The translations under genes were made by a program, and so were the position numbers. From Eledone cirrhosa (Eukaryota), in the NCBI GenBank assembly GCA_964016885.1, contig OZ024743.1, positions 333,932,001 to 333,996,000 of the forward strand: 64,000 bases of DNA, written 5' to 3'. The notes beneath the pieces are model-generated. The model had not been told where the DNA came from and ran no database searches. It saw nothing but the letters and a program-made list of their open reading frames with translations. Of this stretch, positions 6,549 to 45,683 are shown one piece after another (position 1 is the first letter of the stretch; each line of letters begins with the position of its first letter).

Positions 6549-6751
6549 TATGTATACGTACATACATATATGTATACAGACGTACAGTAGTATGTATATA
6601 TATATACATACATGCACACATATATATATGTACGTATGGATTCACCGAACATTTATTATAATGCTCGGTGTGTTTGTAAACAAACATCCCGAATTAAGCC
6701 GTACAGTGTCTAGCAACCATCGTTGCTCATTTGTCCAACACTGACAAAGGA

Positions 6752-6794
6752 ACGCTGTACTAGTTTCAAGCTTATTAGTTCTCGTCAGCAACGT
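6752..6794 (-). ncRNA. Minimal type I hammerhead ribozyme
   Basis: ACGTTG-CTGACGA-GAACTAATAAGCTT-GAAAC-TA-GTA-CAGCGT, with palindromic stem III ACTAGT. Confidence 0.7.
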
Positions 6795-7214
6795 ATACCT
6801 TCCTGCCAGATGGTTGAACGTCTGAAAATATATACTTTCCTTATGCATATTAACGGCTGAGCAGCCTAATTTGCATATCGAGTGAGTTAATCGGCCGGGG
6901 TACCGAAAACGATAAACGGAAAAAATGCAACGAAATTTCATTTCTCACTCTTATAACGGCTGTTACTTAAATATAAGTATGTATACGTACATACATATAT
7001 GTATACAGACGTACAGTAGTACGTATACATACTTATATTTAAGTAAGAGCCGTACTAAGAGTGTGAAATGAAATTTCATTTCATTTTTTCCGTTTATCGT
7101 TTTCGGTACCCCGGCCGATTAACTCACTCGATATGCAAATTAGGCTGCTCAACAGTTAATATGCATAAGGAAAGTATATACTTTCAGACGTTCAACCATC
7201 TGGCAGGAAGGTAT

Positions 7215-7257
7215 ACGTTGCTGACGATAGCTAATAAGCTTGAAACTAGTACAGTGT
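7215..7257 (+). ncRNA. Minimal type I hammerhead ribozyme
   Basis: ACGTTG-CTGACGA-T-AGCT-AATA-AGCT-T-GAAAC-TA-GTA-CAGTGT. Cleavage is predicted after A7251. Confidence 0.75.
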
Positions 7258-7686
7258 TCCTTTGTCAGTGTTGAACAAATGAGCAACAATGGTTGCTAGA
7301 CACTGTACGGCTTAATTCGGGATGTTTGTTTACAAACACACCGAGCATTATAATAAATGTTCGGTGAATCCATACGTACATATATATATATGTGTGCATG
7401 TATGTATATATATATATATACTTACTACTGTACGTCTGTATACATATATGTATGTACGTATACATACTTATATTTAAGTAACAGCCGTACTAAGTGTGAG
7501 AAATGAAATCTCGTTTCATTTTTTCCGTTTATATATATATATATATGGATAAAAGGCCATGGGCGCGCTACGGATCGATGTTCTGTTTTAAGCGCCGTAG
7601 TAAACAACTGACGATGGGAAACTTATCTTCTCTTGTTTACCTTCTAACACTTCGTTTTCAGTAAACACACAGCCTCGCCTTTTTAC

Positions 7687-7734
<48 letters not shown>

Positions 7735-7939
7735 ATATTTGGGGAGGGTCATATTTGCGTAATATTGCCAGAATTAATAACAGAACACACTCACTGTTTG
7801 GTTGGTTTTCGCTTCTCGCTGTCTTTTATATATATATATCTGCGATCTAACTTACTCGGTCCTCAATGTTGCCATTGACTGACCGGCGGTCAAAAATAAT
7901 ACAGATACAATATAGACAAACACATATATATATAGTTTA

Positions 7940-7978
7940 CATAAATCTTTCGTTGCACATCTGCAACATCGTCAGTGG
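7940..7978 (-). ncRNA. PLE pLTR hammerhead motif (inverted copy)
   Basis: Mirror copy of 13598-13636. Confidence 0.6.
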
Positions 7979-8255
7979 TGTTATATTCATTGTTCCTCCT
8001 GTTGTGTTGTATGTCTACGCCATTTTTTTTTTTGTTCAGTCTGTCTATATATTTATTTATTTATTTGCTTGTTTGTTTATCTTATTTTATTTTGTCTTCT
8101 TTGCGCATGCGTTTGCGTGTGTGTATAGTGTTATGTGTGATGTGTGATGTGTGACTAGTGTGTATAGTGTTGTCTGCTGGGTGACTAGTGTGTGTTTATG
8201 TGCTTGTGTATGTATTTATTTATCTTATTTTATTTAATTTAATTTACTTATTTAT

Positions 8256-9485
8256 TTATACTTCTCTTAGGTCAGTGTTGTTTGTTTGGGTGTTGTTGTT
8301 GTTCCACTCATTCTTTCTGTTTAGCTTTGGTCTTCTAATTTCTATTTCACTGGCCTCTCTGATTTGCCTATCTGCTGGGTCATTCCTATGTTTAGATATT
8401 ATTCTAATTTCTATGTTGTCTATGTTACCGTCATGATGTTGTCTAGCATGTTCGTATAGTACTGACCCGTTTTTTCGTCCTTTTAGTTCCCCCCAGTGTT
8501 GGTCTATCCTTTCACCTATGCTACGAGCTGTCTCACCTATGTATGTTGTTGTCGTGTTTCTACAAGTACCCTCTGTACATCTTATGCTATAGACTACGTT
8601 TCTAGTTTTACAGTTTATCCGGGGGTTCACCTTACATATGATACATTTCCTATTGGTACAGTGGGTTTTCTTAAAAGGGTAGGTTTTGCTGATCAGGGAT
8701 TTTATGGTGGTTCCTGGCTTTTCTACCACCTTTATTTTTAAGTGGGTCTTTCTCAGGGCCTTTCTACACTGGTTAGCTAATTTCCCTCCAGGGGTGGCGT
8801 CCACAAACATGACACTCTGATATCTCTGGTTGTCGTACCATGATGTGGTCTTCCCTATCTTATGTCTAGCCCTATCTAAGCTATTCCATGATTTGCTCCT
8901 GTATAGTGGGCAAATTCCTTTCATGTCCAGTTCTATGAGGGTCTTATACTTTTCCATGGCTCCTTCGTATACTCTGACTCTGTCTCTTTGGTTGTAGCCA
9001 GAGAACTGCATGCGGTTGATGAAGTGTTGGATGTGTCCTTCCATTTCTGTTGGGTCGCACATGCTGGACACATTCTTCATCACTCGTACCAAATCTGCGA
9101 TCAGAATATTAAACTTAGCACTACTGGACATTGCTGAGTTTTTGAGTATCAGGTATTTGGAGGCCATGGGTTTAGCATAGTGTGAGTGGAGAATTTGGGC
9201 TCTCTCGTCTATAGTGTTAATCCAGAGTTCTGTGTCTAATACAGGTAGTCTATTGTTAGGGTGTTTGGAAGGGAAGTCTATAGTTACAGTTATACTCTGG
9301 TGTATGGAATTAGCTATCTGCTGGATGCTTTCCATCGTGCTACGTTCTAAATCAAACTTGTTAGTGCTCTCTAGTGGGGGTGTTCTTATAACTATATTGA
9401 TATCGTCTACATAACGAGAGTACATGATGAGGTCTATGGAGCTTTCATTAAGGAGATCTTTAAGTCTCCTTTCCCACCATACCAT
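8256..9485 (-). CDS. 5'-truncated PLE ORF (RT C-terminal part + GIY-YIG), identical to the C-terminal 409 aa of the full ORF
   Basis: YSRYVDD, CTNRKCIIC linker and VVYSIRC...YIGET GIY-YIG motif. Confidence 0.9.
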   Translation of the reverse strand: MVWWERRLKDLLNESSIDLIMYSRYVDDINIVIRTPPLESTNKFDLERSTMESIQQIANSIHQSITVTIDFPSKHPNNRLPVLDTELWINTIDERAQILHSHYAKPMASKYLILKNSAMSSSAKFNILIADLVRVMKNVSSMCDPTEMEGHIQHFINRMQFSGYNQRDRVRVYEGAMEKYKTLIELDMKGICPLYRSKSWNSLDRARHKIGKTTSWYDNQRYQSVMFVDATPGGKLANQCRKALRKTHLKIKVVEKPGTTIKSLISKTYPFKKTHCTNRKCIICKVNPRINCKTRNVVYSIRCTEGTCRNTTTTYIGETARSIGERIDQHWGELKGRKNGSVLYEHARQHHDGNIDNIEIRIISKHRNDPADRQIREASEIEIRRPKLNRKNEWNNNNTQTNNTDLREV

Positions 9486-9690
9486 GAAAAGTATGATATT
9501 ATGTAAACTATATATATATGTGTTTGTCTATATTGTATCTGTATTATTTTTGACCGCCGGTCAGTCAATGGCAACATTGAGGACCGAGTAAGTTAGATCG
9601 CAGATATATATATATAAAAGACAGCGAGAAGCGAAAACCAACCAAACAGTGAGTGTGTTCTGTTATTAATTCTGGCAATATTACGCAAAT

Positions 9691-12600
9691 ATGACCCTCC
9701 CCAAATATAACAATATCTGTTTCGACACACGATTTCATATAAAAAACCTCGCAAAACTAATTCATCGCCGCTATGGCATTAGCTTGTGCCAAGCTGAAAG
9801 GTTATTGAAAGACACTGTTTTCTGTTATATAAAAACTACAATAACAACAGAACAAATCCGCTTCTTAAAACACTGTGTTTCCTCCAAAACATACACAACA
9901 AACATATCAAAACAAGTAAATAATTTATTATTGAACAAAACACAAGCTGAACGGCTAAAACACACAATAACAGTTAATATGAAAAGAACAACATACACAA
10001 AAGTCAACGCACTCTACAGACAAAAACGCATCAACGGTAAGGAAATCCGAAATCTCATCACAGCAAACGAGAGAGATGACTTCATGAGCGTCATCCGACG
10101 CGAAACGAAATATGCTCAAAACGAATGCTGTAGGCATTTCAAGAAGAAATTAGAATGGATGAATAAGAAAAAACTACAAGAAAGGAAAATCGAATATTCT
10201 CAAAAATACCCAGATAACATCGACAACATCCGTATGAGTGATGTAAAACTACCGGAAGAATTTACCAATGACCACACAGTAAATATCTATGGGAACACTT
10301 TAATCAGTGAACAAGAACAACAAATCCTAAAGTTACCACCAAAATTTGCCATCTACAAAAAGATTAATCCTATGGAATGCAAAACGGAGCTGGAAAAGTG
10401 TTTCACAAAAATACGTTGGAATGCAAAGGTAAACAACAACAACAATAATAACGGTAGTAGTAATATAAACAATAACTCTGGGTATAGAAATAACAGCCAT
10501 AACCATAACAATGGCAGGAAAGTGAGAAATAGTGGTAATGGTAATAATACTAGCGATAGACAGAACAACAACAACCACAATAATAATAATAATAGAAACG
10601 TTAACCACAGACACAGCAACAGTGACCACAGTAGTAATAACGGTAACAATACGAACAACAACAACAACAATAACCACAGTGGTAATAATGGAAATAGTAC
10701 ATGTAGCAACATCAACAAAAACAAGAAACATAATAATAGTAACAACCACAGTGGTAGAAATAGCAGTAACAACAACAATAACGGTGAAGTAAACAACAAT
10801 ACATCTAGCAATCATAACAATAATAATATTAATGCTAAGGATAGAAACAACAACAACCACCATGATAACAATAATAGCAACACACACAACTATGACGATA
10901 GAAATAACGACAACCCCTTAGAGAAACTATTTTTCAACCCAGCTGACAAAACATATAAGATGGGTAATATCTATCCTACGAGGTTACCCTTTAATAAAAG
11001 AGTTTGCATACCACAACAAATAGATGACGAGACGGAGGCACAGTTCACCATAGCTAGAAATAAGATTAGACAAGTAGTAGACAGGTACACTATGAGACAG
11101 AGCAGACCAGAGGCCCAACAACTTGGGATAAAACCTGTAGAAGGCTTGGTTAGCCTCAAGCAGCGCACAAGGGATGGTGAGGTAGTGTGTCTACCCACAG
11201 ATAAGTCTGGTAGGATGTCAATAGATAGCATGCCGAACTACATCGAGGCAATGCAACCCCACATCACCAACACGAGCGAAGTTGCACAACTAACACACGA
11301 TGGGAGAGAAAAAATCCTCAACGCTCACATGATGATGTGGACTGACATCCTAAAGCCAAGCAGACGCACTGCCAACAACTTCCAGGCGTCTAACAATGGC
11401 ATACCACCCTTGTATGGGCTCCGCAAAGACCACAAGACAGTCGACGACCCGACAATAGGACCACCAACAAGACCTGTATGCGGAGCTAATATAGCTAGCA
11501 ACTACAGGATCTCCTACTTCCTCTCAATGGTTATACGCCCCATAATCAAGATGTCCCCAGATGTATGTGAAAGTACAGAGGACCTCCTCAGCAGAATCAG
11601 TGAGTGCAACAAAAACAGGAGCCTATCCAACTGCATAATAGGCAGCATGGATGTGGTGTCACTGTACCCATCCATTAACATTGATTTTGCTGTGAAAAGA
11701 TGTGTGGAGATGATCATTGAGAGTGAGGTGGAGTTCTGCGACGTCGACACAGACGAACTGGGCCTCCTACTTAGACTTACCTACGACACTGACTACCTAG
11801 ACAGCCATGACCTTAGATGTTTCTGCCCTAGTAGACCTATAAGAGGTAGACCCCCCACCATAACCTCAATGGCTAAAAAGACTCCCATAGGAAGGTGGAT
11901 TGGGTGGACCAAAGCTATACAGACCCCCCAAAACACTGATCAGGTAAGAAAAATGGTCGCACATGCAATAGGGGCTAGTATCAAAACTACCCTAAAGGGC
12001 CACATATTTAAGTTCAATGAGAAAATCTACACCCAAAATGAGGGAGCAGCCATCGGCGTCAGCATAGCTGGCGATGTTGCCAACCTTTTCATGGTATGGT
12101 GGGAAAGGAGACTTAAAGATCTCCTTAATGAAAGCTCCATAGACCTCATCATGTACTCTCGTTATGTAGACGATATCAATATAGTTATAAGAACACCCCC
12201 ACTAGAGAGCACTAACAAGTTTGATTTAGAACGTAGCACGATGGAAAGCATCCAGCAGATAGCTAATTCCATACACCAGAGTATAACTGTAACTATAGAC
12301 TTCCCTTCCAAACACCCTAACAATAGACTACCTGTATTAGACACAGAACTCTGGATTAACACTATAGACGAGAGAGCCCAAATTCTCCACTCACACTATG
12401 CTAAACCCATGGCCTCCAAATACCTGATACTCAAAAACTCAGCAATGTCCAGTAGTGCTAAGTTTAATATTCTGATCGCAGATTTGGTACGAGTGATGAA
12501 GAATGTGTCCAGCATGTGCGACCCAACAGAAATGGAAGGACACATCCAACACTTCATCAACCGCATGCAGTTCTCTGGCTACAACCAAAGAGACAGAGTC

Positions 12601-13320
12601 AGAGTATACGAAGGAGCCATGGAAAAGTATAAGACCCTCATAGAACTGGACATGAAAGGAATTTGCCCACTATACAGGAGCAAATCATGGAATAGCTTAG
12701 ATAGGGCTAGACATAAGATAGGGAAGACCACATCATGGTACGACAACCAGAGATATCAGAGTGTCATGTTTGTGGACGCCACCCCTGGAGGGAAATTAGC
12801 TAACCAGTGTAGAAAGGCCCTGAGAAAGACCCACTTAAAAATAAAGGTGGTAGAAAAGCCAGGAACCACCATAAAATCCCTGATCAGCAAAACCTACCCT
12901 TTTAAGAAAACCCACTGTACCAATAGGAAATGTATCATATGTAAGGTGAACCCCCGGATAAACTGTAAAACTAGAAACGTAGTCTATAGCATAAGATGTA
13001 CAGAGGGTACTTGTAGAAACACGACAACAACATACATAGGTGAGACAGCTCGTAGCATAGGTGAAAGGATAGACCAACACTGGGGGGAACTAAAAGGACG
13101 AAAAAACGGGTCAGTACTATACGAACATGCTAGACAACATCATGACGGTAACATAGACAACATAGAAATTAGAATAATATCTAAACATAGGAATGACCCA
13201 GCAGATAGGCAAATCAGAGAGGCCAGTGAAATAGAAATTAGAAGACCAAAGCTAAACAGAAAGAATGAGTGGAACAACAACAACACCCAAACAAACAACA
13301 CTGACCTAAGAGAAGTATAA
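9691..13320 (+). CDS. PLE reverse transcriptase + C-terminal GIY-YIG endonuclease, 1209 aa, intact (Neptune/Nematis-like)
   Basis: DKS (DKG motif), LYGLRKDHK, RPVC, SMDVVSLYPSI, QNEGAAIG, YSRYVDD and LPVLD. CxxxxCxxC linker and VVY..C..C..YIGET..R..H..H GIY-YIG/CCHH. Asn-rich tract at about aa 247-410. Confidence 0.95.
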   Translation: MTLPKYNNICFDTRFHIKNLAKLIHRRYGISLCQAERLLKDTVFCYIKTTITTEQIRFLKHCVSSKTYTTNISKQVNNLLLNKTQAERLKHTITVNMKRTTYTKVNALYRQKRINGKEIRNLITANERDDFMSVIRRETKYAQNECCRHFKKKLEWMNKKKLQERKIEYSQKYPDNIDNIRMSDVKLPEEFTNDHTVNIYGNTLISEQEQQILKLPPKFAIYKKINPMECKTELEKCFTKIRWNAKVNNNNNNNGSSNINNNSGYRNNSHNHNNGRKVRNSGNGNNTSDRQNNNNHNNNNNRNVNHRHSNSDHSSNNGNNTNNNNNNNHSGNNGNSTCSNINKNKKHNNSNNHSGRNSSNNNNNGEVNNNTSSNHNNNNINAKDRNNNNHHDNNNSNTHNYDDRNNDNPLEKLFFNPADKTYKMGNIYPTRLPFNKRVCIPQQIDDETEAQFTIARNKIRQVVDRYTMRQSRPEAQQLGIKPVEGLVSLKQRTRDGEVVCLPTDKSGRMSIDSMPNYIEAMQPHITNTSEVAQLTHDGREKILNAHMMMWTDILKPSRRTANNFQASNNGIPPLYGLRKDHKTVDDPTIGPPTRPVCGANIASNYRISYFLSMVIRPIIKMSPDVCESTEDLLSRISECNKNRSLSNCIIGSMDVVSLYPSINIDFAVKRCVEMIIESEVEFCDVDTDELGLLLRLTYDTDYLDSHDLRCFCPSRPIRGRPPTITSMAKKTPIGRWIGWTKAIQTPQNTDQVRKMVAHAIGASIKTTLKGHIFKFNEKIYTQNEGAAIGVSIAGDVANLFMVWWERRLKDLLNESSIDLIMYSRYVDDINIVIRTPPLESTNKFDLERSTMESIQQIANSIHQSITVTIDFPSKHPNNRLPVLDTELWINTIDERAQILHSHYAKPMASKYLILKNSAMSSSAKFNILIADLVRVMKNVSSMCDPTEMEGHIQHFINRMQFSGYNQRDRVRVYEGAMEKYKTLIELDMKGICPLYRSKSWNSLDRARHKIGKTTSWYDNQRYQSVMFVDATPGGKLANQCRKALRKTHLKIKVVEKPGTTIKSLISKTYPFKKTHCTNRKCIICKVNPRINCKTRNVVYSIRCTEGTCRNTTTTYIGETARSIGERIDQHWGELKGRKNGSVLYEHARQHHDGNIDNIEIRIISKHRNDPADRQIREASEIEIRRPKLNRKNEWNNNNTQTNNTDLREV

Positions 13321-13597
13321 ATAAATAAGTAAATTAAATTAAATAAAATAAGATAAATAAATACATACACAAGCACATAAACACACACTAGTCACCCAGC
13401 AGACAACACTATACACACTAGTCACACATCACACATCACACATAACACTATACACACACGCAAACGCATGCGCAAAGAAGACAAAATAAAATAAGATAAA
13501 CAAACAAGCAAATAAATAAATAAATATATAGACAGACTGAACAAAAAAAAAAATGGCGTAGACATACAACACAACAGGAGGAACAATGAATATAACA

Positions 13598-13636
13598 CCA
13601 CTGACGATGTTGCAGATGTGCAACGAAAGATTTATG
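13598..13636 (+). ncRNA. PLE pLTR minimal hammerhead ribozyme
   Basis: CA-CTGACGA-T-GTTGCA-GATG-TGCAAC-GAAA-GAT-TTA-TG. Stem II is a perfect 6 bp. Stem III is quasi-palindromic AGATTT (dimeric type). Stem I is short. Confidence 0.6.
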
Positions 13637-13823
13637 TAAACTATATATATATGTGTTTGTCTATATTGTATCTGTATTATTTTTGACCGCCGGTCAGTCA
13701 ATGGCAACATTGAGGACCGAGTAAGTTAGATCGCAGATATATATATATAAAAGACAGCGAGAAGCGAAAACCAACCAAACAGTGAGTGTGTTCTGTTATT
13801 AATTCTGGCAATATTACGCAAAT

Positions 13824-16800
13824 ATGACCCTCCCCAAATATAACAATATCTGTTTCGACACACGATTTCATATAAAAAACCTCGCAAAACTAATTCATCG
13901 CCGCTATGGCATTAGCTTGTGCCAAGCTGAAAGGTTATTGAAAGACACTGTTTTCTGTTATATAAAAACTACAATAACAACAGAACAAATCCGCTTCTTA
14001 AAACACTGTGTTTCCTCCAAAACATACACAACAAACATATCAAAACAAGTAAATAATTTATTATTGAACAAAACACAAGCTGAACGGCTAAAACACACAA
14101 TAACAGTTAATATGAAAAGAACAACATACACAAAAGTCAACGCACTCTACAGACAAAAACGCATCAACGGTAAGGAAATCCGAAATCTCATCACAGCAAA
14201 CGAGAGAGATGACTTCATGAGCGTCATCCGACGCGAAACGAAATATGCTCAAAACGAATGCTGTAGGCATTTCAAGAAGAAATTAGAATGGATGAATAAG
14301 AAAAAACTACAAGAAAGGAAAATCGAATATTCTCAAAAATACCCAGATAACATCGACAACATCCGTATGAGTGATGTAAAACTACCGGAAGAATTTACCA
14401 ATGACCACACAGTAAATATCTATGGGAACACTTTAATCAGTGAACAAGAACAACAAATCCTAAAGTTACCACCAAAATTTGCCATCTACAAAAAGATTAA
14501 TCCTATGGAATGCAAAACGGAGCTGGAAAAGTGTTTCACAAAAATACGTTGGAATGCAAAGGTAAACAACAACAACAATAATAACGGTAGTAGTAATATA
14601 AACAATAACTCTGGGTATAGAAATAACAGCCATAACCATAACAATGGCAGGAAAGTGAGAAATAGTGGTAATGGTAATAATACTAGCGATAGACAGAACA
14701 ACAACAACCACAATAATAATAATAATAGAAACGTTAACCACAGACACAGCAACAGTGACCACAGTAGTAATAACGGTAACAATACGAACAACAACAACAA
14801 CAATAACCACAGTGGTAATAATGGAAATAGTACATGTAGCAACATCAACAAAAACAAGAAACATAATAATAGTAACAACCACAGTGGTAGAAATAGCAGT
14901 AACAACAACAATAACGGTGAAGTAAACAACAATACATCTAGCAATCATAACAATAATAATATTAATGCTAAGGATAGAAACAACAACAACCACCATGATA
15001 ACAATAATAGCAACACACACAACTATGACGATAGAAATAACGACAACCCCTTAGAGAAACTATTTTTCAACCCAGCTGACAAAACATATAAGATGGGTAA
15101 TATCTATCCTACGAGGTTACCCTTTAATAAAAGAGTTTGCATACCACAACAAATAGATGACGAGACGGAGGCACAGTTCACCATAGCTAGAAATAAGATT
15201 AGACAAGTAGTAGACAGGTACACTATGAGACAGAGCAGACCAGAGGCCCAACAACTTGGGATAAAACCTGTAGAAGGCTTGGTTAGCCTCAAGCAGCGCA
15301 CAAGGGATGGTGAGGTAGTGTGTCTACCCACAGATAAGTCTGGTAGGATGTCAATAGATAGCATGCCGAACTACATCGAGGCAATGCAACCCCACATCAC
15401 CAACACGAGCGAAGTTGCACAACTAACACACGATGGGAGAGAAAAAATCCTCAACGCTCACATGATGATGTGGACTGACATCCTAAAGCCAAGCAGACGC
15501 ACTGCCAACAACTTCCAGGCGTCTAACAATGGCATACCACCCTTGTATGGGCTCTGCAAAGACCACAAGACAGTCGACGACCCGACAATAGGACCACCAA
15601 CAAGACCTGTATGCGGAGCTAATATAGCTAGCAACTACAGGATCTCCTACTTCCTCTCAATGGTTATACGCCCCATAATCAAGATGTCCCCAGATGTATG
15701 TGAAAGTACAGAGGACCTCCTCAGCAGAATCAGTGAGTGCAACAAAAACAGGAGCCTATCCAACTGCATAATAGGCAGCATGGATGTGGTGTCACTGTAC
15801 CCATCCATTAACATTGATTTTGCTGTGAAAAGATGTGTGGAGATGATCATTGAGAGTGAGGTGGAGTTCTGCGACGTCGACACAGACGAACTGGGCCTCC
15901 TACTTAGACTTACCTACGACACTGACTACCTAGACAGCCATGACCTTAGATGTTTCTGCCCTAGTAGACCTATAAGAGGTAGACCCCCCACCATAACCTC
16001 AATGGCTAAAAAGACTCCCATAGGAAGGTGGATTGGGTGGACCAAAGCTATACGGACCCCCCAAAACACTGATCAGGTAAGAAAAATGGTCGCACATGCA
16101 ATAGGGGCTAGTATCAAAACTACCCTAAAGGGCCACATATTTAAGTTCAATGAGAAAATCTACACCCAAAATGAGGGAGCAGCCATCGGCGTCAGCATAG
16201 CTGGCGATGTTGCCAACCTTTTCATGGTATGGTGGGAAAGGAGACTTAAAGATCTCCTTAATGAAAGCTCCATAGACCTCATCATGTACTCTCGTTATGT
16301 AGACGATATCAATATAGTTATAAGAACACCCCCACTAGAGAGCACTAACAAGTTTGATTTAGAACGTAGCACGATGGAAAGCATCCAGCAGATAGCTAAT
16401 TCCATACACCAGAGTATAACTGTAACTATAGACTTCCCTTCCAAACACCCTAACAATAGACTACCTGTATTAGACACAGAACTCTGGATTAACACTATAG
16501 ACGAGAGAGCCCAAATTCTCCACTCACACTATGCTAAACCCATGGCCTCCAAATACCTGATACTCAAAAACTCAGCAATGTCCAGTAGTGCTAAGTTTAA
16601 TATTCTGATCGCAGATTTGGTACGAGTGATGAAGAATGTGTCCAGCATGTGCGACCCAACAGAAATGGAAGGACACATCCAACACTTCATCAACCGCATG
16701 CAGTTCTCTGGCTACAACCAAAGAGACAGAGTCAGAGTATACGAAGGAGCCATGGAAAAGTATAAGACCCTCATAGAACTGGACATGAAAGGAATTTGCC

Positions 16801-17453
16801 CACTATACAGGAGCAAATCATGGAATAGCTTAGATAGGGCTAGACATAAGATAGGGAAGACCACATCATGGTACGACAACCAGAGATATCAGAGTGTCAT
16901 GTTTGTGGACGCCACCCCTGGAGGGAAATTAGCTAACCAGTGTAGAAAGGCCCTGAGAAAGACCCACTTAAAAATAAAGGTGGTAGAAAAGCCAGGAACC
17001 ACCATAAAATCCCTGATCAGCAAAACCTACCCTTTTAAGAAAACCCACTGTACCAATAGGAAATGTATCATATGTAAGGTGAACCCCCGGATAAACTGTA
17101 AAACTAGAAACGTAGTCTATAGCATAAGATGTACAGAGGGTACTTGTAGAAACACGACAACAACATACATAGGTGAGACAGCTCGTAGCATAGGTGAAAG
17201 GATAGACCAACACTGGGGGGAACTAAAAGGACGAAAAAACGGGTCAGTACTATACGAACATGCTAGACAACATCATGACGGTAACATAGACAACATAGAA
17301 ATTAGAATAATATCTAAACATAGGAATGACCCAGCAGATAGGCAAATCAGAGAGGCCAGTGAAATAGAAATTAGAAGACCAAAGCTAAACAGAAAGAATG
17401 AGTGGAACAACAACAACACCCAAACAAACAACACTGACCTAAGAGAAGTATAA
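13824..17453 (+). CDS. Second intact PLE RT + GIY-YIG ORF, 1209 aa
   Basis: Matches copy 1 except for two amino-acid changes found: R>C (C11422/T15555) and Q>R (A11921/G16054). Confidence 0.95.
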   Translation: MTLPKYNNICFDTRFHIKNLAKLIHRRYGISLCQAERLLKDTVFCYIKTTITTEQIRFLKHCVSSKTYTTNISKQVNNLLLNKTQAERLKHTITVNMKRTTYTKVNALYRQKRINGKEIRNLITANERDDFMSVIRRETKYAQNECCRHFKKKLEWMNKKKLQERKIEYSQKYPDNIDNIRMSDVKLPEEFTNDHTVNIYGNTLISEQEQQILKLPPKFAIYKKINPMECKTELEKCFTKIRWNAKVNNNNNNNGSSNINNNSGYRNNSHNHNNGRKVRNSGNGNNTSDRQNNNNHNNNNNRNVNHRHSNSDHSSNNGNNTNNNNNNNHSGNNGNSTCSNINKNKKHNNSNNHSGRNSSNNNNNGEVNNNTSSNHNNNNINAKDRNNNNHHDNNNSNTHNYDDRNNDNPLEKLFFNPADKTYKMGNIYPTRLPFNKRVCIPQQIDDETEAQFTIARNKIRQVVDRYTMRQSRPEAQQLGIKPVEGLVSLKQRTRDGEVVCLPTDKSGRMSIDSMPNYIEAMQPHITNTSEVAQLTHDGREKILNAHMMMWTDILKPSRRTANNFQASNNGIPPLYGLCKDHKTVDDPTIGPPTRPVCGANIASNYRISYFLSMVIRPIIKMSPDVCESTEDLLSRISECNKNRSLSNCIIGSMDVVSLYPSINIDFAVKRCVEMIIESEVEFCDVDTDELGLLLRLTYDTDYLDSHDLRCFCPSRPIRGRPPTITSMAKKTPIGRWIGWTKAIRTPQNTDQVRKMVAHAIGASIKTTLKGHIFKFNEKIYTQNEGAAIGVSIAGDVANLFMVWWERRLKDLLNESSIDLIMYSRYVDDINIVIRTPPLESTNKFDLERSTMESIQQIANSIHQSITVTIDFPSKHPNNRLPVLDTELWINTIDERAQILHSHYAKPMASKYLILKNSAMSSSAKFNILIADLVRVMKNVSSMCDPTEMEGHIQHFINRMQFSGYNQRDRVRVYEGAMEKYKTLIELDMKGICPLYRSKSWNSLDRARHKIGKTTSWYDNQRYQSVMFVDATPGGKLANQCRKALRKTHLKIKVVEKPGTTIKSLISKTYPFKKTHCTNRKCIICKVNPRINCKTRNVVYSIRCTEGTCRNTTTTYIGETARSIGERIDQHWGELKGRKNGSVLYEHARQHHDGNIDNIEIRIISKHRNDPADRQIREASEIEIRRPKLNRKNEWNNNNTQTNNTDLREV

Positions 17454-17730
17454 ATAAATAAGTAAATTAAATTAAATAAAATAAGATAAATAAATACATA
17501 CACAAGCACATAAACACACACTAGTCACCCAGCAGACAACACTATACACACTAGTCACACATCACACATCACACATAACACTATACACACACGCAAACGC
17601 ATGCGCAAAGAAGACAAAATAAAATAAGATAAACAAACAAGCAAATAAATAAATAAATATATAGACAGACTGAACAAAAAAAAAAATGGCGTAGACATAC
17701 AACACAACAGGAGGAACAATGAATATAACA

Positions 17731-17769
17731 CCACTGACGATGTTGCAGATGTGCAACGAAAGATTTATG
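17731..17769 (+). ncRNA. PLE pLTR hammerhead motif (second unit)
   Basis: Identical to 13598-13636 shifted by +4133. Confidence 0.6.
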
Positions 17770-18140
17770 TAAACTATATATATATGTGTTTGTCTATATT
17801 GTATCTGTATTATTTTTGACCGCCGGTCAGTCAATGGCAACATTGAGGACCGAGTAAGTTAGATCGCAGATATATATATATAAAAGACAGCGAGAAGCGA
17901 AAACCAACCAAACAGTGAGTGTGTTCTGTTATTAATTCTGGCAATATTACGCAAATATGACCCTCCCCAAATATAACAATATCTGTTTCGACACACGATT
18001 TCATATAAAAAACCTCGCAAAACTAATATATATATATATATATATATATATAATGAAAAATTTGAACAGGGACAGAACAGAGAGGCAGTACAATAAATGT
18101 TTATTAAATTCACGCTCAGGAGAGTGGGGGGTAGGTGGGG

Positions 18141-22246: not shown

Positions 22247-22280
22247 CTTCTGATGAAGGACTAGCGTCCGAAACGTTAAG
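22247..22280 (+). ncRNA. Minimal type I HHR in a short pLTR-like remnant ending in (CA)n
   Basis: CTT-CTGATGA-A-GGAC-TAGC-GTCC-GAAAC-GTT-AAG, with palindrome AACGTT. Confidence 0.8.
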
Positions 22281-28272: not shown

Positions 28273-31200
28273 ATGACCTCACTCAGAATAGGCAGCATAA
28301 ATGCGCGTGGCTTGGGGTCGTCATGGAAGCAGGGCCACCTGCTCAACGACCTCAGGTCACTAAACATAGATGTAGTGGCCATCAGCGAGACCAGAATCTC
28401 CGAAGCACAGGCTTTCGCACCGATCTTCGGCGGCTACGATGTGTACGGGATCGGGGGGAGGAGTTGCTGTGCTTTTTCGGAGAGGTTTGGATCTTGCCAT
28501 ACGGGCCATCTTCCTGGACCCAGAAGGTAAGTTGGTGGTGCTGGACGTGACCAGCGGAGACGGGCAAGCTTTCAGGTTAGTGGCCGTCTATGCCCCGACA
28601 GGAGCAGGGCGGCCTGATTTCTTCCGGCGTTTGGAGACCTTTCTTGGAACGTCCCGCTCTTTAGTGTTAGTGGGCGACTGGAACGGGATCTTAGATGCAC
28701 GCTGGGATTGTGTGGGATTAGTGGATAGGGAAGGAGGGTGCAAGAGTCTCACCAACCTGCTCAGACGTTTTGAACTGTCTGACAGGTACCGAATGGATTT
28801 CCCGAATGTACCAATGTGGACTTGGACAAATTGCATAGGGTCATCCAGATCATATCTAGATAGAGTATTTTGTAGGGAAATAGATAGGTCTAGCATAGGC
28901 TGTCCACAATTCAAGATAGTCAGCTACACGGACCACAAATTCGTGATCTGTGTGCTTGACTTAGATAGGCTTCATAGACAAGGACCCGGCTACTGGAAGC
29001 TAAACGCGTCCTTACCAGCGCGCAAGGCCTACAGAGACCGGATTAGCGAACTAGTTAAGCGGACGTTGACGGGGGCCATCGTCAACAACAAGTGGTGGTT
29101 TGCTCTGAAAAGAGCAATTAGAATAGAGTCCATTAGGTTTAGTAAGACTTTAGCAATAGAGAAAAATAGAGCAGAGGGAGAATTAGTTAGAAAATTAGAT
29201 GAGGCGCTTAGCAAAGGCATCGCGACCGACGTACTTGCGGCGAAATTGGCCCTTGACCAATTCTTCAATGCAAAGCACGAAGGCTGCGTTGTCAGAGCTA
29301 GGGTGCGTGCTCTCAGACACGAGGGGACGAAAGCCGTTCAATGGGCCCGAGTGGCGGAGGCGCGTCGTGGCAACAAAGCCACGATCCGGTCTTTGGTGGA
29401 CCACGACGGGCGCATGCTACTCGATCCCGGGCAAATGTGTGAAGCTTTTCAGCGACACTTCGCTCAACTGTTCGGGGGCAGTGGCGGGCCGGATCGAGGG
29501 ATGGACTTTAGTGTCTACATCGACGGACTGCCGCGGCTTTCGGCCACTGAGGCGGAGTGTTGCGAAAAGCCGATAACAACCGCTGAAGTACGGGATGCAA
29601 TGACTAGTTGCACAAGGGGTAAATCGCCTGGTTTGGATGGTCTGCCCTATGAACTTTACGTACAAATGTCAAACTTGTTCGGAGGCCTCTTGGCGGACGT
29701 CTACTGCAACTGGCAACAGAACGGGAGAATTCCCAGCTCTGTGAGCCGAGGAGCGGTGGCGCTGCTGAGAAAGGATCCGAACAAGGGGGATAACATAGAT
29801 AATTTTAGGCCCATAACTCTGCTAAACACAGAGTTCAAGATTTTGGCCAAGGTGCTAGCAAAGAGGTTGGCGCTTGTCGTTGGTGGTCTGGTGGGAGAGG
29901 CACAGACATGCGCCATTCCCGACAGATCCATCCACGACAACCTCCACCTCATGCGATACATCGTAGAGAGGTTAGCTAGGGAACCTGGCACGGGTGGGTC
30001 TTTGATCAATTTAGATCAGTCGAAAGCCTTCGATAGGGTCGACCATAGTTACCTAGCGGCAGTCCTGAGGGCGGCTGGCTTTGGGCCCGTCTTCAGAGGC
30101 TGGATCGCTGCCATGCACAGCGACATCTGCTCTGTAGTGAGAGTGAACGGTCACCTTTCGGAACCGCTCAACATCATGCGCTCGGTCCGCCAAGGATGTC
30201 CCCTCTCGTCCCTATTGTACGTATTGACTCTCGAGCCATTACTGCACAAACTGGAGACGTTGAGGGGGGTCCCGCGCGAACTAGGATGCGGAAGATCCGT
30301 GTCAGCACATGCCGACGATGTCACCGTAGTGGTGTCGAACGCCAAACACATCGAGGCGATCGGCACTACACTAAGAGAATACGAAGCGGTGACAGGAGCA
30401 ATGATCAACCAGGAAAAGTCAGTGGGCCTGCAGCTCGGCACCTGGAGAGGCAGGTCCATGCCGTCCAACAGCGTCGTCGGGCGCTGGACGGACGGACCGG
30501 TTAAATTGCTAGGGGTCTGGTTCGGTCCAGACCTCCAGACGGACAAAAACTGGGACGAGGTGACCAGCAGGGTGGCTTCTCTCACCCAGAAATGGGCCGA
30601 GAGGAAGCTATCCCTGAAAGGTCGAGCGGAGGTGGCGAATGCGTACATCGCATCCGTCATCTACTACCGCCTGACCGTCGTACCTTGTCCTAAGCCCCGC
30701 CTGACTGCGCTGGAGCGTTTGCTCTTTCGCTTCTTGTGGAAGGGACGCGCTCCGATGGTCAGGCGGTCCATCTGCTGTCAACACCCGCTACGTGGAGGGC
30801 TGGGCATGCCGTGGCTGATGATGCGCAGATACGCGCTCAGGCTACGACATCTCCACCTCTTCCTCGACGGTGATCAGGTGTGGTCGCCTTTTGCTAGACA
30901 CGTTTTTCCCCAGCTCGTCTCCTTGACGGAGCTGCAGTCCTGGGTCAAGCGAAGACCGAGAGGGAGCGCTTGGAGACTGGAATGTCTTCAGGCGCTCACA
31001 GCCCTCGACCAATCGGGCAATGCGATCGGTGGAAAATCCACCTTGGCGTTCTATAGGGGATTAGTGGAGGGGAAGAGCGACGACGTACTTGGAGAAACTC
31101 TAGGCGTCGACGAAAATCAACTAGCCAATCTCTTCGGAAGGACTTTCGGGCCGGGGCCTATGGACAACTTCCAGAAATCCCTGGCCTGGCAGTGCTACCG

Positions 31201-31675
31201 AGGAGCTTTGCCAGTTCGGGATAAACTCTACAGGCATGGAGGTGCCGTCAGCCGGGCATGTCCGAGATGCGCGCAGGGCGACGAAACCGTCCTGCACGCA
31301 CTCGTCCAGTGTCCGAGCATTGCTGACTTGTGGGTTTATGTCGAACACCTGCTGTCACGTGTAGGACGGATCCAGCTATCAGCTGAGTCCATCGTGAGGA
31401 TTACCCCGCTCCCTTCCTTTAGCCTGGAAGGGCAGGCAGTTTTTATCTGTCTGGTGGCCATGGCGAAAGAGATAGTATGGTGGACACGTTTGAAAGGGCT
31501 GAAGACGAGCACTTACCTCTTCGGTGATGCCCTGATTAACTTTTTCAAATTTCATTTGAAAAGGAAAATCAGGGTAGAGAGGGAAGTGCTCTCTTCCCAG
31601 CATTTTGTTGAAAGATGGGTGAGAGAAGCAAGTATGGCCCGAATGAATGGGCCTTCTCTGAGTATGTGTCTGTAA
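28273..31675 (+). pseudogene. Tx1 ORF2: APE endonuclease + RT + C-terminal Zn motif, one frameshift near 28450
   Basis: MTSLRIGSINARGL..SET, VYAP, GDWN, YLDR, TDHK, WKLN, KSPGLDG, FRPITLLN, LDQSKAFDRV, VRQGCPLS, HADD and CPRC..ETVLHALVQC. Confidence 0.9.
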
Positions 31676-31980: not shown

Positions 31981-34900
31981 CAATTCAATGATGTTCCAGA
32001 ACAATATAAAAGAGATAATTGGTAATTTAGGTTCTGGAACAAAAAAGATCATTGGCAATAAGGGCAGGGGCCCCAGGTTATCACAGCCTGGGCCCGCTCG
32101 TCATCGTGCCATTGTAATAGAGCCAAACAGGGCATTTAGTCTTGGCTGCTGGAACGTACGGACGCTGCTTGACAGGGATTCCTTGGGGCGTCCTGAACGA
32201 AGGACCGCTCTTGTTGCAAAGGAGCTTCGACGTTACGATCTTGACATCGTGGCTTTATCTGAGACGAGGCTAGCTGGAGATGGTCATCTTACGGAATTTT
32301 GTGGAGAATATACATTCTTCTGGAAAGGAAGAGACGAAGGAACCAGAAGAGAGGCTGGGGTAGGATTTGCTGTTAAGACTGTGCTTGTGAACAAATTAGA
32401 GGAATTCCCAGTAGGGATTAGTGAGCGTCTTATGTCCATAAGAGTTCCGCTGGACAAGGGAAGATATGCTACCCTGGTGAGTATGCTACCTGGATCTGTG
32501 TGTTACCAACACCATGTTCCAACAAAAGAACAAATTCAAGACCACATGGATACATCCTGCATCTAAGGAATGGCATCTTTTGGACTACGTCCTAGTCAGG
32601 ATGCGTGACAGACAGGATGTGCAGTGTGTTCGTGTTCTTCGTGGAGCTGAGTGCTGGACGGACCACGGCCTGGTACGCGCAAAAGTGAAACTAATCACTA
32701 AACGTAAAATCAGGGCTCCTGGTGCTGCCCTGCCCAAAAGATTGAATGCTGCTCGTCTTAACGATAAAAATGTGAAGAGGACATTGGAAGAAGAGATGCA
32801 GGCTGCAGATCTTGGTGAGGATTGGCCGACCCTTAAAAAGTCGGTTTATGATGTAGGTAGGCGTGTTCTGGGATTGGCGCAGAGGAAACATCAGGACTGG
32901 TTTGATGAGAATGATGTACATATAGAAGACTTGTTGGCTGATAAGAGGCGTGCTCTGTCACGCTACTTGACGGAAAAACCACAGGAGAGGAATACGTTGC
33001 ATGAGGAACTCAGGGATATAAAATCACGTGTTAGGCGGAGTCTTTCTCAGATGAAGGATCAGTGGTGGAGTGAGAAGGCTGGTGAGATACAAACTGCGTC
33101 TGATTCCAATAACACAAAGCTGTTGTACAGTCTCTTGCGTGAGGTTTATGGACCGTCTTCTTCTCTGGTGACACCGCTTCGCAGCAAGGATGGCAAAGAA
33201 CTTCTTCGTGACTCACAAGAAATTCTACGAAGGTGGCGAGAGCACTTTGATGATCTTTTGAATCAGCCGTCTGTCGTCAGTGAAGATTTCCTCAATCTCA
33301 TTCCAGAAAGTCCTGTGAAAGTAGCTCTCGCAGAACCTCCAACGCTTGTGGAGGTTGCAGTGGCTATTTCGAAGCTGAACAGTGGAAGATCTCCAGGTAT
33401 GGATGGCATACATGCTGAGCTCCTACAATATGGTGGTGAGAGACTCCTGCAACATCTTCATTCTTTGTTTGGCAGGATATGGGCTAATGAATCCGTACCT
33501 GAGGACTGGAGAGATGCAGTAATGGTGGTCTTGTACAAGGGAAAGGGTAACAGGAACGATTGTGGGAACTACAGAGGTATATCATTGATTTCTGTCGTAG
33601 GGAAAGTTTTATGTAGGGTGCTTCTGGACCGTCTGCTGACACACATTGCAGATTGTGTTCTTCCTGAAAGTCAATCTGGTTTTCGTGCTGGACGCGGCAC
33701 TACTGATATGATCTTCTCAGCTAGACAGCTCCAGGAGAAGTGCATGGAACAAGGCTTGGATCTGTATCAGGTTTTTGTCGATCTGACAAAAGCTTTCGAT
33801 ACTGTTAACAGAGATGCATTATGGAAGGTTCTCCAGAAACTTGGTTGCCCTGATAAGTTCCTTGCTTTAGTTAGGTATTTCCATGACGACATGAAGGCTT
33901 GGGTTAATGTCGGGGGTAACATGTCGGAGCCTATCTCAGTAAAAAATGGAGTGAAACGGGGATATTCCAGCACCGACCCTGTTTGCCATATACTTTGCAA
34001 TGGTTTTCTGTATTGCATTCAGGAATTGCGAGCATGGTGTTTACATCCGATATCGAACCTCAGGCAGCATATTTAACATCAGGCGCTTTGCTGGGAAGAC
34101 AAAAGTATTTACATCAATCATAAGAGACCTCTTGTATGCAGATGATTGCGATATTGTAGCGCACACAGAGAGAGATATGCAGCACATTTTGAATGCATTT
34201 TCTGACGCTTGCACTGCCCTAATTCTGACTGTCAGTCTTAAGAAAACCGTCGTCATGTACCAACTTGCCCCTGGTAAGCAGTACACTGAACCAAACATCT
34301 ATGTGTATGGCAAACGACTTGGAGTGGTTGATCAGTTTGTCTACCTGGGAAGCACTGTCAATCGATACAGCAACCTTGACAGTGAAATCTCACTTAGGAT
34401 TAGGAAAGCAAGTGATGCTTTCGGAAAGCTAGAAAGGCGACTCTGGGGTCGGCGAGACATATGCAGGAGGACAAAGGTAAAGGTGTACAGGGCATGTGTG
34501 CTCTCTTGTCTTCTTTATGCCTGCGAGACCTGGGTCACATATCGACACCACCTTAAGCAATTGGAGCGTTTCCATCAGATGTGTCTCAGACGGATCCAGG
34601 GCGTTCACTGGAGGGACCACATCAGTGATGTCGAGATTTTTGAAAGCTCTATGTGTGACAGTATAGAAGCTCTTATGCTTAAGCAACGACTCCGTTGGAG
34701 TGGTCACCTTGCCAGGATGAAGGATTCTAGAATACCAAAACAACTCTTTTATGGAGAGTTGGTTAAAGGAAAACGACCGCCACATAAACCAAAAAAGAGG
34801 TATAAGGATTCCTTGAAAGCCTCTCTGAAAGACGCTAACATCTCTGCTGATACATGGGAGAATATTGCTGCTGATCGTAATAAATGGAGAAAGACTGTAT

Positions 34901-35535
34901 ATGAGGGAAAAGTTGCCTTTGAGGCATCTCGAATCGCATACGAGAAAGTAAAGCGGGATGTGAGGAAGGGCATTGCTGTTGCACTTCCAGACGGCGAGGG
35001 TCCTCCTATCGTGCTGACATGCAGCGTATGTGCGAGACTCTGTCTAAGCAAAGCTGGACTCGAAAGTCATCTTCGCAGTCATAAAGTAAGACTAGTGGTT
35101 GACTACCAGGCTGCTGTTGGAGATGCTACTCATCATGCTTGCCAAACATGTGGTAGAGAATGTAAATCAGCAGGAGGGCTCAAGCGACATGCAAAAGTAC
35201 ATGAACTCCAACCACAGCCGACTATTCCCAGTGAATGTTTTGGTTGCCGACTCTGTGCAAGACATTTTAGATCATTGGCTGGGCTAAAAAGCCACATTCG
35301 ATCGCAGCGCTGTTAGTTGCTATCGTGTGTGTGTGTGTGCGTGTGTAGATATGCTTATGTGTGTGCGTGGGTGTGTATATATATATGTATATGTATATCA
35401 TTATTGTTGTTGTCGTTATTATTATTGGTGTTATTGTTATTATTATTATTATTGTTATTAATGTATGTGTGTGTGTATATATGTGTGTGAGTGTGTGAGT
35501 GTGTGAGTGTGTGTGTGTGTGTGTGTATGTGTATG

Positions 35536-41278: not shown

Positions 41279-41355
<77 letters not shown>

Positions 41356-41363
<8 letters not shown>

Positions 41364-41711
41364 CGTAAGATAAGAAAATTATAAAATTATAAAAAGATTA
41401 TAAAATTGACTTACTTACTAAAATATCACTTTCAACTAATTAGTTTCTGGAATGGAGTAAATATATTTTCCGAAGATCATATAGAAAAGCATTCCGTCGT
41501 CAGGAAAGTCTCTTTTCGTGTAAGTTTCCAGGCATAGCGAGGACTCTGGAAACTTATTAAAAAAAACGACGGAATGCTTTTCTATATGATCTTCGGAAAA
41601 TATATTTACTCCATTCCAGAAACTAATTAGTTGAAAGTGATATTTTAGTAAGTAAGTCAATTTTATAATCTTTTTATAATTTTATAATTTTCTTATCTTA
41701 CGTCTCTCATA
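41356..41711. repeat. Fold-back repeat with ~145-bp perfect arms
   Basis: ATGAGAGACGTAAGATAAG...ATTCCGTCGT / ACGACGGAAT...CTTATCTTACGTCTCTCAT, adjacent to (TA)n. Confidence 0.9.
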
Positions 41712-41823
41712 TTATTGTTCTGCAACCCCATGCATTGAACCACAACGTTACTAAGACAAAACCTATATATTTGCTAGCATTGATATGCATCTGTATGTAT
41801 ATAAATGTTACTAGATATAAATT

Positions 41824-45224: not shown

Positions 45225-45260
<36 letters not shown>

Positions 45261-45311
45261 AAATAAAATAAAATAAATAAGTCAAATGTTTAAAATTTAG
45301 CTTCGTTTATT

Positions 45312-45366
45312 ACTGCTATATATATTTCGGTGACAGCCATCTTTGGCTGTGACCTCTTCAGGCAGT
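45312..45366 (-). ncRNA. Type I hammerhead ribozyme
   Basis: Reverse complement of 45486-45540. Confidence 0.85.
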
Positions 45367-45485
45367 CCGAAATATTGTGGTATAGACAAGTACATATGTT
45401 GTTGAGGTGTATAACCTTGTCAAGAGTATTGACAAGGTTATACACCTAAACAACATGTGTACTCGTCTCTACCACACTAATTCGG

Positions 45486-45540
45486 ACTGCCTGAAGAGGT
45501 CACAGCCAAAGATGGCTGTCACCGAAATATATATAGCAGT
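45486..45540 (+). ncRNA. Type I hammerhead ribozyme
   Basis: ACTGC-CTGAAGA-GGTCACAGCCA-AAGA-TGGCTGTCACC-GAAA-TATATA-TA-GCAGT. Confidence 0.85.
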
Positions 45541-45683
45541 AATAAACGAAGCTAAATTTTAAACATTTGACTTATTTATTTTATTTTATTTTACATTACT
45601 CCGGAGTAACCAAACCAACCTGCGCACTTCGTTGAGTGCTCCATTCTGCATACTGAGTTGTTGGTATACAACCAACATATACT

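Follow-up and report, generated by a model that had tools for sequence, protein, structure and literature searches.

5' junctions of a Penelope-like element in Eledone cirrhosa suggest a minor hammerhead cleavage footprint, a likely capped start and paired reverse-transcription start sites

We analyzed a 64,000-nucleotide stretch of the Eledone cirrhosa genome (GenBank assembly GCA_964016885.1, contig OZ024743.1, positions 333,932,001 to 333,996,000, forward strand; hereafter the window), which carries a young head-to-head insertion of an endonuclease-bearing (EN+) Penelope-like element (PLE) into a (TA)n tract. The insertion lies between unstranded (TA)n target microsatellites at 7690–7729 and 18027–18052. 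From left to right it comprises an inverted, 5'-truncated arm on the minus strand (7727–9491, 100% complementary to 12085–13849), an unstranded 7-nt filler at the head-to-head junction (9492–9498), two forward units on the plus strand (9499–13631 and 13632–17764) and a partial terminal pseudo-long terminal repeat (pLTR) with a 'tail' (17765–18027, plus strand). Positions in the element are numbered from a predicted hammerhead ribozyme cut, with r = 0 at H17 (window 13634) and r+1 at the first base past the cut. In this numbering, the inverted arm extends from its outer (3') end at r+215 to its inner (5') end at r-1549, within the reverse transcriptase (RT) coding region; the terminal pLTR has its 3' end at r+260, and unit 1 starts at r-2, without the upstream ribozyme core. 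Intact hammerheads are present in the inverted arm (core start 7975) and at the end of unit 2 (17734–17767, plus strand). A reading of the window made without database searches (the sequence-only reading) had placed the unit start at 9499, equivalent to 13632, after a 7-nt linker; this was borne out, as direct identity between the units begins exactly there, with a period of 4133. The two units differ at 2 of 4133 positions (11422 and 11921). Each allele at these positions is private among the fetched loci, which ruled out tracing a source array through them. It is not rare for copies of the window's subfamily to form multi-unit tandems, and arrays of 3–4 units exist; one locus (G000:C1:14381837-14395621) has four hammerheads spaced ~4.15 kb apart and an inverted arm.

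Each unit contains one open reading frame of 1216 amino acids (aa) from stop to stop, located at 9670–13320 in unit 1 (plus strand, first Met at 9691) and at 13803–17453 in unit 2. The frame encodes an Asn-rich insert, a DKS motif, an RT with YVDD at aa 832 and a C-x4-C-x2-C linker at aa 1083, followed by a GIY-YIG-like VVYSI...YIG sequence and CCHH-like residues. The Asn-rich insert is in frame and upstream of the RT (10420–10910). Pfam matched RVT_1 with E = 6.6e-5, under the curated cut-off; a Pfam search of the endonuclease piece gave no match, nor did whole-protein Pfam and PDB searches or a phage tblastn search. Atlas neighbors of the protein carry RVT_1, HTH_animal and GIY-YIG domains (score 0.97). 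A single frame with an RT followed by a GIY-YIG endonuclease, together with pLTRs formed by a partial tandem, an inverted 5'-truncated copy and a one-ended tail, are features of EN+ PLEs. The linker agrees with the CX2-5CXXC motif between RT and endonuclease that defines the Neptune/Nematis clade (PMC8557442). Judged by its protein and architecture, the element is an EN+ PLE of known type, with a linker of the Neptune/Nematis type.

The hammerhead is a type I minimal motif at 13590–13646 (plus strand), and the coordinates given for it in the sequence-only reading proved correct: CUGACGA at 13601, stem II GTTGCA/TGCAAC, GAAA at 13625 and a predicted cut after A13634. Stem II (13609–13624) has 6 bp with an extra U ahead of it, and helix III is formed by the palindrome AGATTT at 13628–13633, with A13634 as H17. 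In copies of the window's subfamily (window-type copies), stem I consists of a 2-bp proximal part and a distal AUAUA/UAUAU pairing, with a constrained fold of -4.9 kcal/mol; a 4-bp proximal stem I (ACCA/UGGU) occurs in one rare variant only. Minimal type I hammerheads are expected to have a stem I of 4–5 bp. Rfam models scored no hammerhead at the motif, and this minimal variant was identified by its anatomy: a CUGANGA...GAAA core, an NUH triplet, stem II and a palindromic helix III are all present. Across subfamilies (111 cores, overlapping loci not de-duplicated), U16.1 does not vary, H17 can be A, U or C but never G, and position 16.2 is U or C opposite G15.2. This variation fixes the register, and conservation of the NUH triplet and of the pairing with G15.2 fits selection on the ribozyme. 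The function of hammerheads in PLEs is called unclear in PMC8557442.

According to the sequence-only reading, reverse transcription ran to the end of a ribozyme-cleaved transcript, a subsequent template switch produced the inverted copy, and the ribozyme defined the retrotransposition template; mapping of 5' junctions across the family for a peak at the predicted cut was proposed as a check. Thousands of young copies let 5' junctions stand in for template ends. A 23-mer of the pLTR has 3,334 exact matches in the genome (G000), and the first 100 of these listed (contig C1, 10–108 Mb) were followed upstream. Sequence passed beyond the cut in 94 of the 100 copies. In this sample, background truncation (72 events) ran at 0.00063 per base per copy, and the interval r-6 to r+10 held 5 ends where ~1 was expected (P ~ 0.004–0.008). 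Window-type copies intact across the cut numbered 1,376, and ends at the cut amount to ~2% of such passes. In R2/L1Tc-like elements, most complete insertions are expected to end at the ribozyme cleavage site; here ~2% do. That expectation is supported in outline by PMC6765202. A template whose 5' end is set by the cut, with RT switching template there, would agree with the position of the window junction, 3 nt from the predicted cut, and with the subfamily peak described below, but it is already largely refuted by the read-through, including that of the window's own forward arm, which passed two intact cores (17734 and 13601). Taken with the ~2% share, a stronger, cap-marked end upstream and the origin of the inverted arm (both below), we regard it as extremely unlikely.

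A peak of junctions at the cut was nevertheless detected in the window's subfamily. Enriched sets were obtained with patterns excluding the intact upstream sequence. The window-type set gave 78 rows, of which 25 were dropped (18 duplication-type, 4 with internal indels, 2 local duplications and 1 ambiguous), leaving 53 junctions over r-35 to r+1. Of these, 22 fell in r-2 to r+1, which is 4 of 37 positions (P = 9e-9); counted by independent insertions, 16 of 46 did so (P = 1.4e-5). Junction density off the peak was 0.94 per position and the peak was ~5 times its flanks, with 2 ends at +1, 7 at 0, 10 at -1 and 3 at -2. An overlapping window-type set reaching downstream had 16 of 45 junctions at the cut among the matches listed (100 of 101 rows), or 4.0 per position, as against 0.8 per position on the upstream side and 1.2 on the downstream side. 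At several window-type loci both arms end at the cut, including blunt palindromes and one locus with both arms exactly at +1. One locus (L215, G000:C1:330423987-330424194) is a four-arm fold-back insertion in which no arm ends more than 3 nt away from the predicted cut.

Half of the sampled copies (50/100) form a sister subfamily in which 9 nt are duplicated immediately at the cut, and in these no peak was found: among the matches listed (100 of 170 rows, 20 dropped), 9 of 80 junctions lay at the cut (P = 0.50), and a second set (100 of 119 rows listed) had no peak at either UUA (12/78 and 10/78). The difference from window-type copies was significant (Fisher P = 1e-4). A shift of the cut to the second UUA was ruled out, r+7 to r+10 having 10 of 78 junctions (P = 0.30). 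This subfamily may be a ribozyme-weakened lineage that has spread as well as the intact one.

The peak might also arise with no ribozyme trace at all, as an RT pause or protein footprint at an uncut, folded hammerhead, or as TA or palindromic microhomology at TA|TG, the window junction then being an ordinary truncation. Such a view would fit the modal apparent end at -1 (TA, the target dinucleotide), the TTA kept by the window copy, the 3–5 nt kept upstream of the cut in older subfamilies, and the available sections of PMC11167929, in which no RNA reads start or end at the cut and the predominant substrate is RNA that has not been processed. However, the identical TA|TGTAAAC context gives no peak in the duplication subfamily; since the bases that follow are shared by the two subfamilies, local TA microhomology does not by itself account for the peak. 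In addition, some blunt joins have both arms at +1, and the foot of stem II (r-9/-10), much the most stable hairpin, had no pile-up of ends in the window-type set, by which RT stalling at this point was ruled out. We consider an origin of the peak without cleavage unlikely, and the ~2% of window-subfamily copies that stop at the cut are likely a minor sign that the ribozyme cuts.

A fixed 5' end stronger than the cut site is located at r-100. In the 21-nt zone r-97 to r-117 (220 junction rows), 18 of the 100 junctions listed end at r-100 (P = 1e-6), and 11 of the 100 sampled copies (7 insertions) end within r-90 to r-125, versus 1.9 expected. A dedicated search captured 43 ends at r-100, all of which were listed; 32 of the 43 have a G where the family has C (P = 4e-8 against 1/3), some of these Gs doubling as microhomology with the partner arm. 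In L1, an extra G found at full-length junctions has been read as a copied cap (PMC11702581), and Penelope transcripts begin within the upstream pLTR (PMC2377424). The 5' ends at r-100 with their extra G suggest that a capped transcription start likely lies at the A of AGACTGAAC (13534, plus strand), 67 nt upstream of the ribozyme core, with the extra G as the copied cap. A variable-length A-tract followed by AAAATGGCG occupies 13543–13558 (plus strand). We take AAAATGGCG, 16 nt downstream of the putative capped start, to be a YY1-like motif. One locus with an extra G on both arms points to a possible second capped start at r-104. The segment 13485–13553 contains AATAAA at r-149, -123, -119 and -115, ahead of the variable A-tract at r-91. 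Speculatively, if this A-tract were a poly(A) site, the 9 nt from cap to A-tract would be terminally redundant, like the R region of a long terminal repeat (LTR), and a 5'-to-3' jump of the cDNA could build tandems.

Tandems have also been explained by successive hammerhead cleavage and ligation, giving a unit-length RNA circle that is copied repeatedly, as proposed in PMC4209133; the present copy would have ended where the ribozyme re-opened the circle. The near-identical units of the window (differing at 2 positions by alleles that are private among the fetched loci), the arrays of 3–4 units and a seamless read-through would all be expected from it. On the other hand, the cap-like G at r-100 indicates linear capped templates, the duplication subfamily is equally widespread (50/100 sampled) without a cut peak, and tandem source loci can account for multi-unit arms. 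We consider a circular template highly unlikely.

The inverted arm appears to have its own origin. In the 100-copy sample, compilation by hand gave 34 head-to-head pairs in which the outer end of each arm was resolved, and all 34 join one start at +208–219 to one at +258–274; the window conforms, with +215 and +260. In 6 of the 34 pairs, the two arms stop within 20 nt of one another. One would not expect a switch from the forward arm to halt at an initiation site of the family, which disfavors the template switch that the sequence-only reading had invoked; the uniformly heterotypic pairs point to an inverted arm that was primed separately, with the other target strand as primer. For the head-to-head form, PMC3846280 proposed self-priming on an antisense template. 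In PMC11167929, synthesis in vitro had two internal start sites and extended both strands, a dimer was predicted, and hammerhead cleavage was dispensable for insertion.

As for the 5' junction of the window copy, its position close to the cut, without the upstream core, stands as first described. The three bases that unit 1 retains (TTA, i.e. U16.2, U16.1 and H17) belong to the 5' cleavage product and hence would be absent from a cleaved template. With a 1-nt insertion (GAT-A-TTA in the window, GAT-TTA in the family) the match extends to r-5, 5 nt upstream of H17, and this alignment would need an uncut template. In a rough calculation, true +1 ends with a chance TTA match would give 0.4–0.7 apparent r-2 ends versus 0.94 from background. 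Near-cut positions are beyond chance at the level of the subfamily; for this single junction, we see less than an even chance of derivation from a ribozyme cut. Run-off on a cleaved transcript, as originally proposed, agrees with the non-random junctions of the subfamily but fits this copy poorly, as its forward arm retains three bases from before the cut and had run through two intact hammerheads.

The explanation that we moderately favor involves two RT events from both cut target strands, joined end to end, in which the main fixed 5' end would be a likely cap and the ribozyme a minor source (~2%) of template ends in the window's subfamily. The endonuclease would cut both strands within (TA)n, and each target 3' end would prime RT at one or the other start site, the RNA probably being the same for both, with a dimeric protein perhaps priming both arms on it. 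Head-to-head joining of the two cDNAs would involve filler or microhomology. The cDNAs could end at random, at the cap (~11% falling in its zone) or, more rarely, at the ribozyme-cut end (~2%), the peak at -2 to +1 then representing run-off at a cleaved 5' end. Cleavage in vivo is here inferred from junctions. A fuller reading, which we hold with just under even confidence, is that the genome records in vivo hammerhead cleavage (the peak being lost in the 9-nt duplication variant), a capped start and RT start sites that form an obligate pair, and that a dimer primes both target strands on one capped RNA; cutting would then be a side exit, which may limit rather than drive copying.

Several observations weigh against the explanation that we moderately favor. 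In the 100-copy sample, r-2 to r+1 strictly holds only 1 of 100 ends. The enriched sets were tallied by eye, with a script cross-check of the first 30 loci of four sets only, which agreed except for a few miscalls of single-nucleotide variants and indels. Apparent ends peak at -1/0 rather than +1, which palindromic or TA microhomology could explain for most ends, though not all. In the older TGAT/ACTT subfamilies (100 of 290 rows listed), the peak is weak, with 10 of 63 junctions in r-2 to r+1 (P = 0.14) and 17 of 63 in r-4 to r+1 (P = 0.02), yet their helices look no worse than those of window-type copies, and many of them retain 3–5 nt upstream of the cut, telling against simple run-off. The helix-III self-duplex is very weak (-1.8 kcal/mol). 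Finally, the zone r-97 to r-114 is broad, and A-tract stalling or 3' processing near the AATAAA motifs may contribute to it.

With regard to the check proposed at the outset, junction mapping yielded a genuine though small peak in window-type copies (22/53), none in the duplication subfamily and a weak one in older subfamilies. What the junctions suggest is a cleavage footprint that is minor and subfamily-specific, a capped start located upstream of the ribozyme, and strict pairing of start sites; the window-type and 9-nt duplication forms are specific RNA variants for bench comparison. A search of sequencing runs listed no RNA run containing the element. Contigs from four sequencing runs of unrecorded kind, aligned to the pLTR, contained the subfamily variants; RNA ends are not readable from them. 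PMC13000458 and PMC6431247 contributed nothing to the cap question, and a retrozyme preprint nothing about junctions. A literature search listed no paper in which the 5' junctions of PLEs were mapped to a hammerhead cut or to a cap G, with most subscription papers outside its coverage and supplements (notably Fig. S2 of PMC11167929) that may bear on this.

Additional hammerhead-like cores are present in the window at 22250 (plus strand), 18171 (minus strand), 45129/45361/45491, 41503 (minus strand), 62386 and 7221/6788. Several of them sit in short inverted-repeat elements (45256–45596, 41354–41712 and 6591–7418), and these cores are probably relics of other PLE families. Frames of the long interspersed nuclear element (LINE) type were detected at 28376–31675 (APE endonuclease, RVT_1 and zf-RVT) and 32481–35316 (split RT with C2H2 fingers), with diverged inverted relatives at 48–56 kb.

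In the available sections of PMC8557442 and PMC3846280, EN+ PLEs share with the window element a single frame with RT plus a GIY-YIG-like domain at its C terminus, a cysteine linker, partial-tandem pLTRs, an inverted 5'-truncated copy at the 5' end, a tail at one end only, (TA)n targets, an Asn-rich insert and palindromic junctions, and no structural difference was evident from them; the insert resembles that described for Adineta Penelope elements (PMC3846280). What is new relative to known EN+ PLEs is counts only, namely the 34/34 pairing of tail and no-tail starts and the mapped 5' junction peaks. The paired start sites favor two primings on sense RNA, unlike the self-priming proposed in PMC3846280. 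The minimal type I hammerheads of metazoan PLEs (PMC4209133) have in common with the window motif the CUGANGA/GAAA core, an unpaired base between A9 and G10.1, G10.1-C11.1, a long stem II, location in the pLTR, a palindromic helix III and a predicted dimer requirement. The proximal stem I of the window's subfamily differs from theirs in having only 2 bp, and whereas the available sections of PMC4209133 contain no in vivo evidence, a subfamily-specific peak of genomic junctions at the cut was observed here. The Poseidon element of Anolis (PAc, PMC11167929) likewise has two internal RT start sites bounding the tail, cutting and extension of both target strands, and AT-rich targets; its hammerhead overlaps the start of the open reading frame, without reads at the cut in the sections available, while the window hammerhead lies ~190 nt upstream of the first Met and has a minor junction peak. 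L1 twin priming (PMC11702581) also involves a second RT event from the reciprocal target end, end-joined arms and an extra G at full-length 5' junctions, but L1 arms copy non-overlapping parts of the RNA, whereas arms of the window's family start 45–60 nt apart and copy overlapping sequence.

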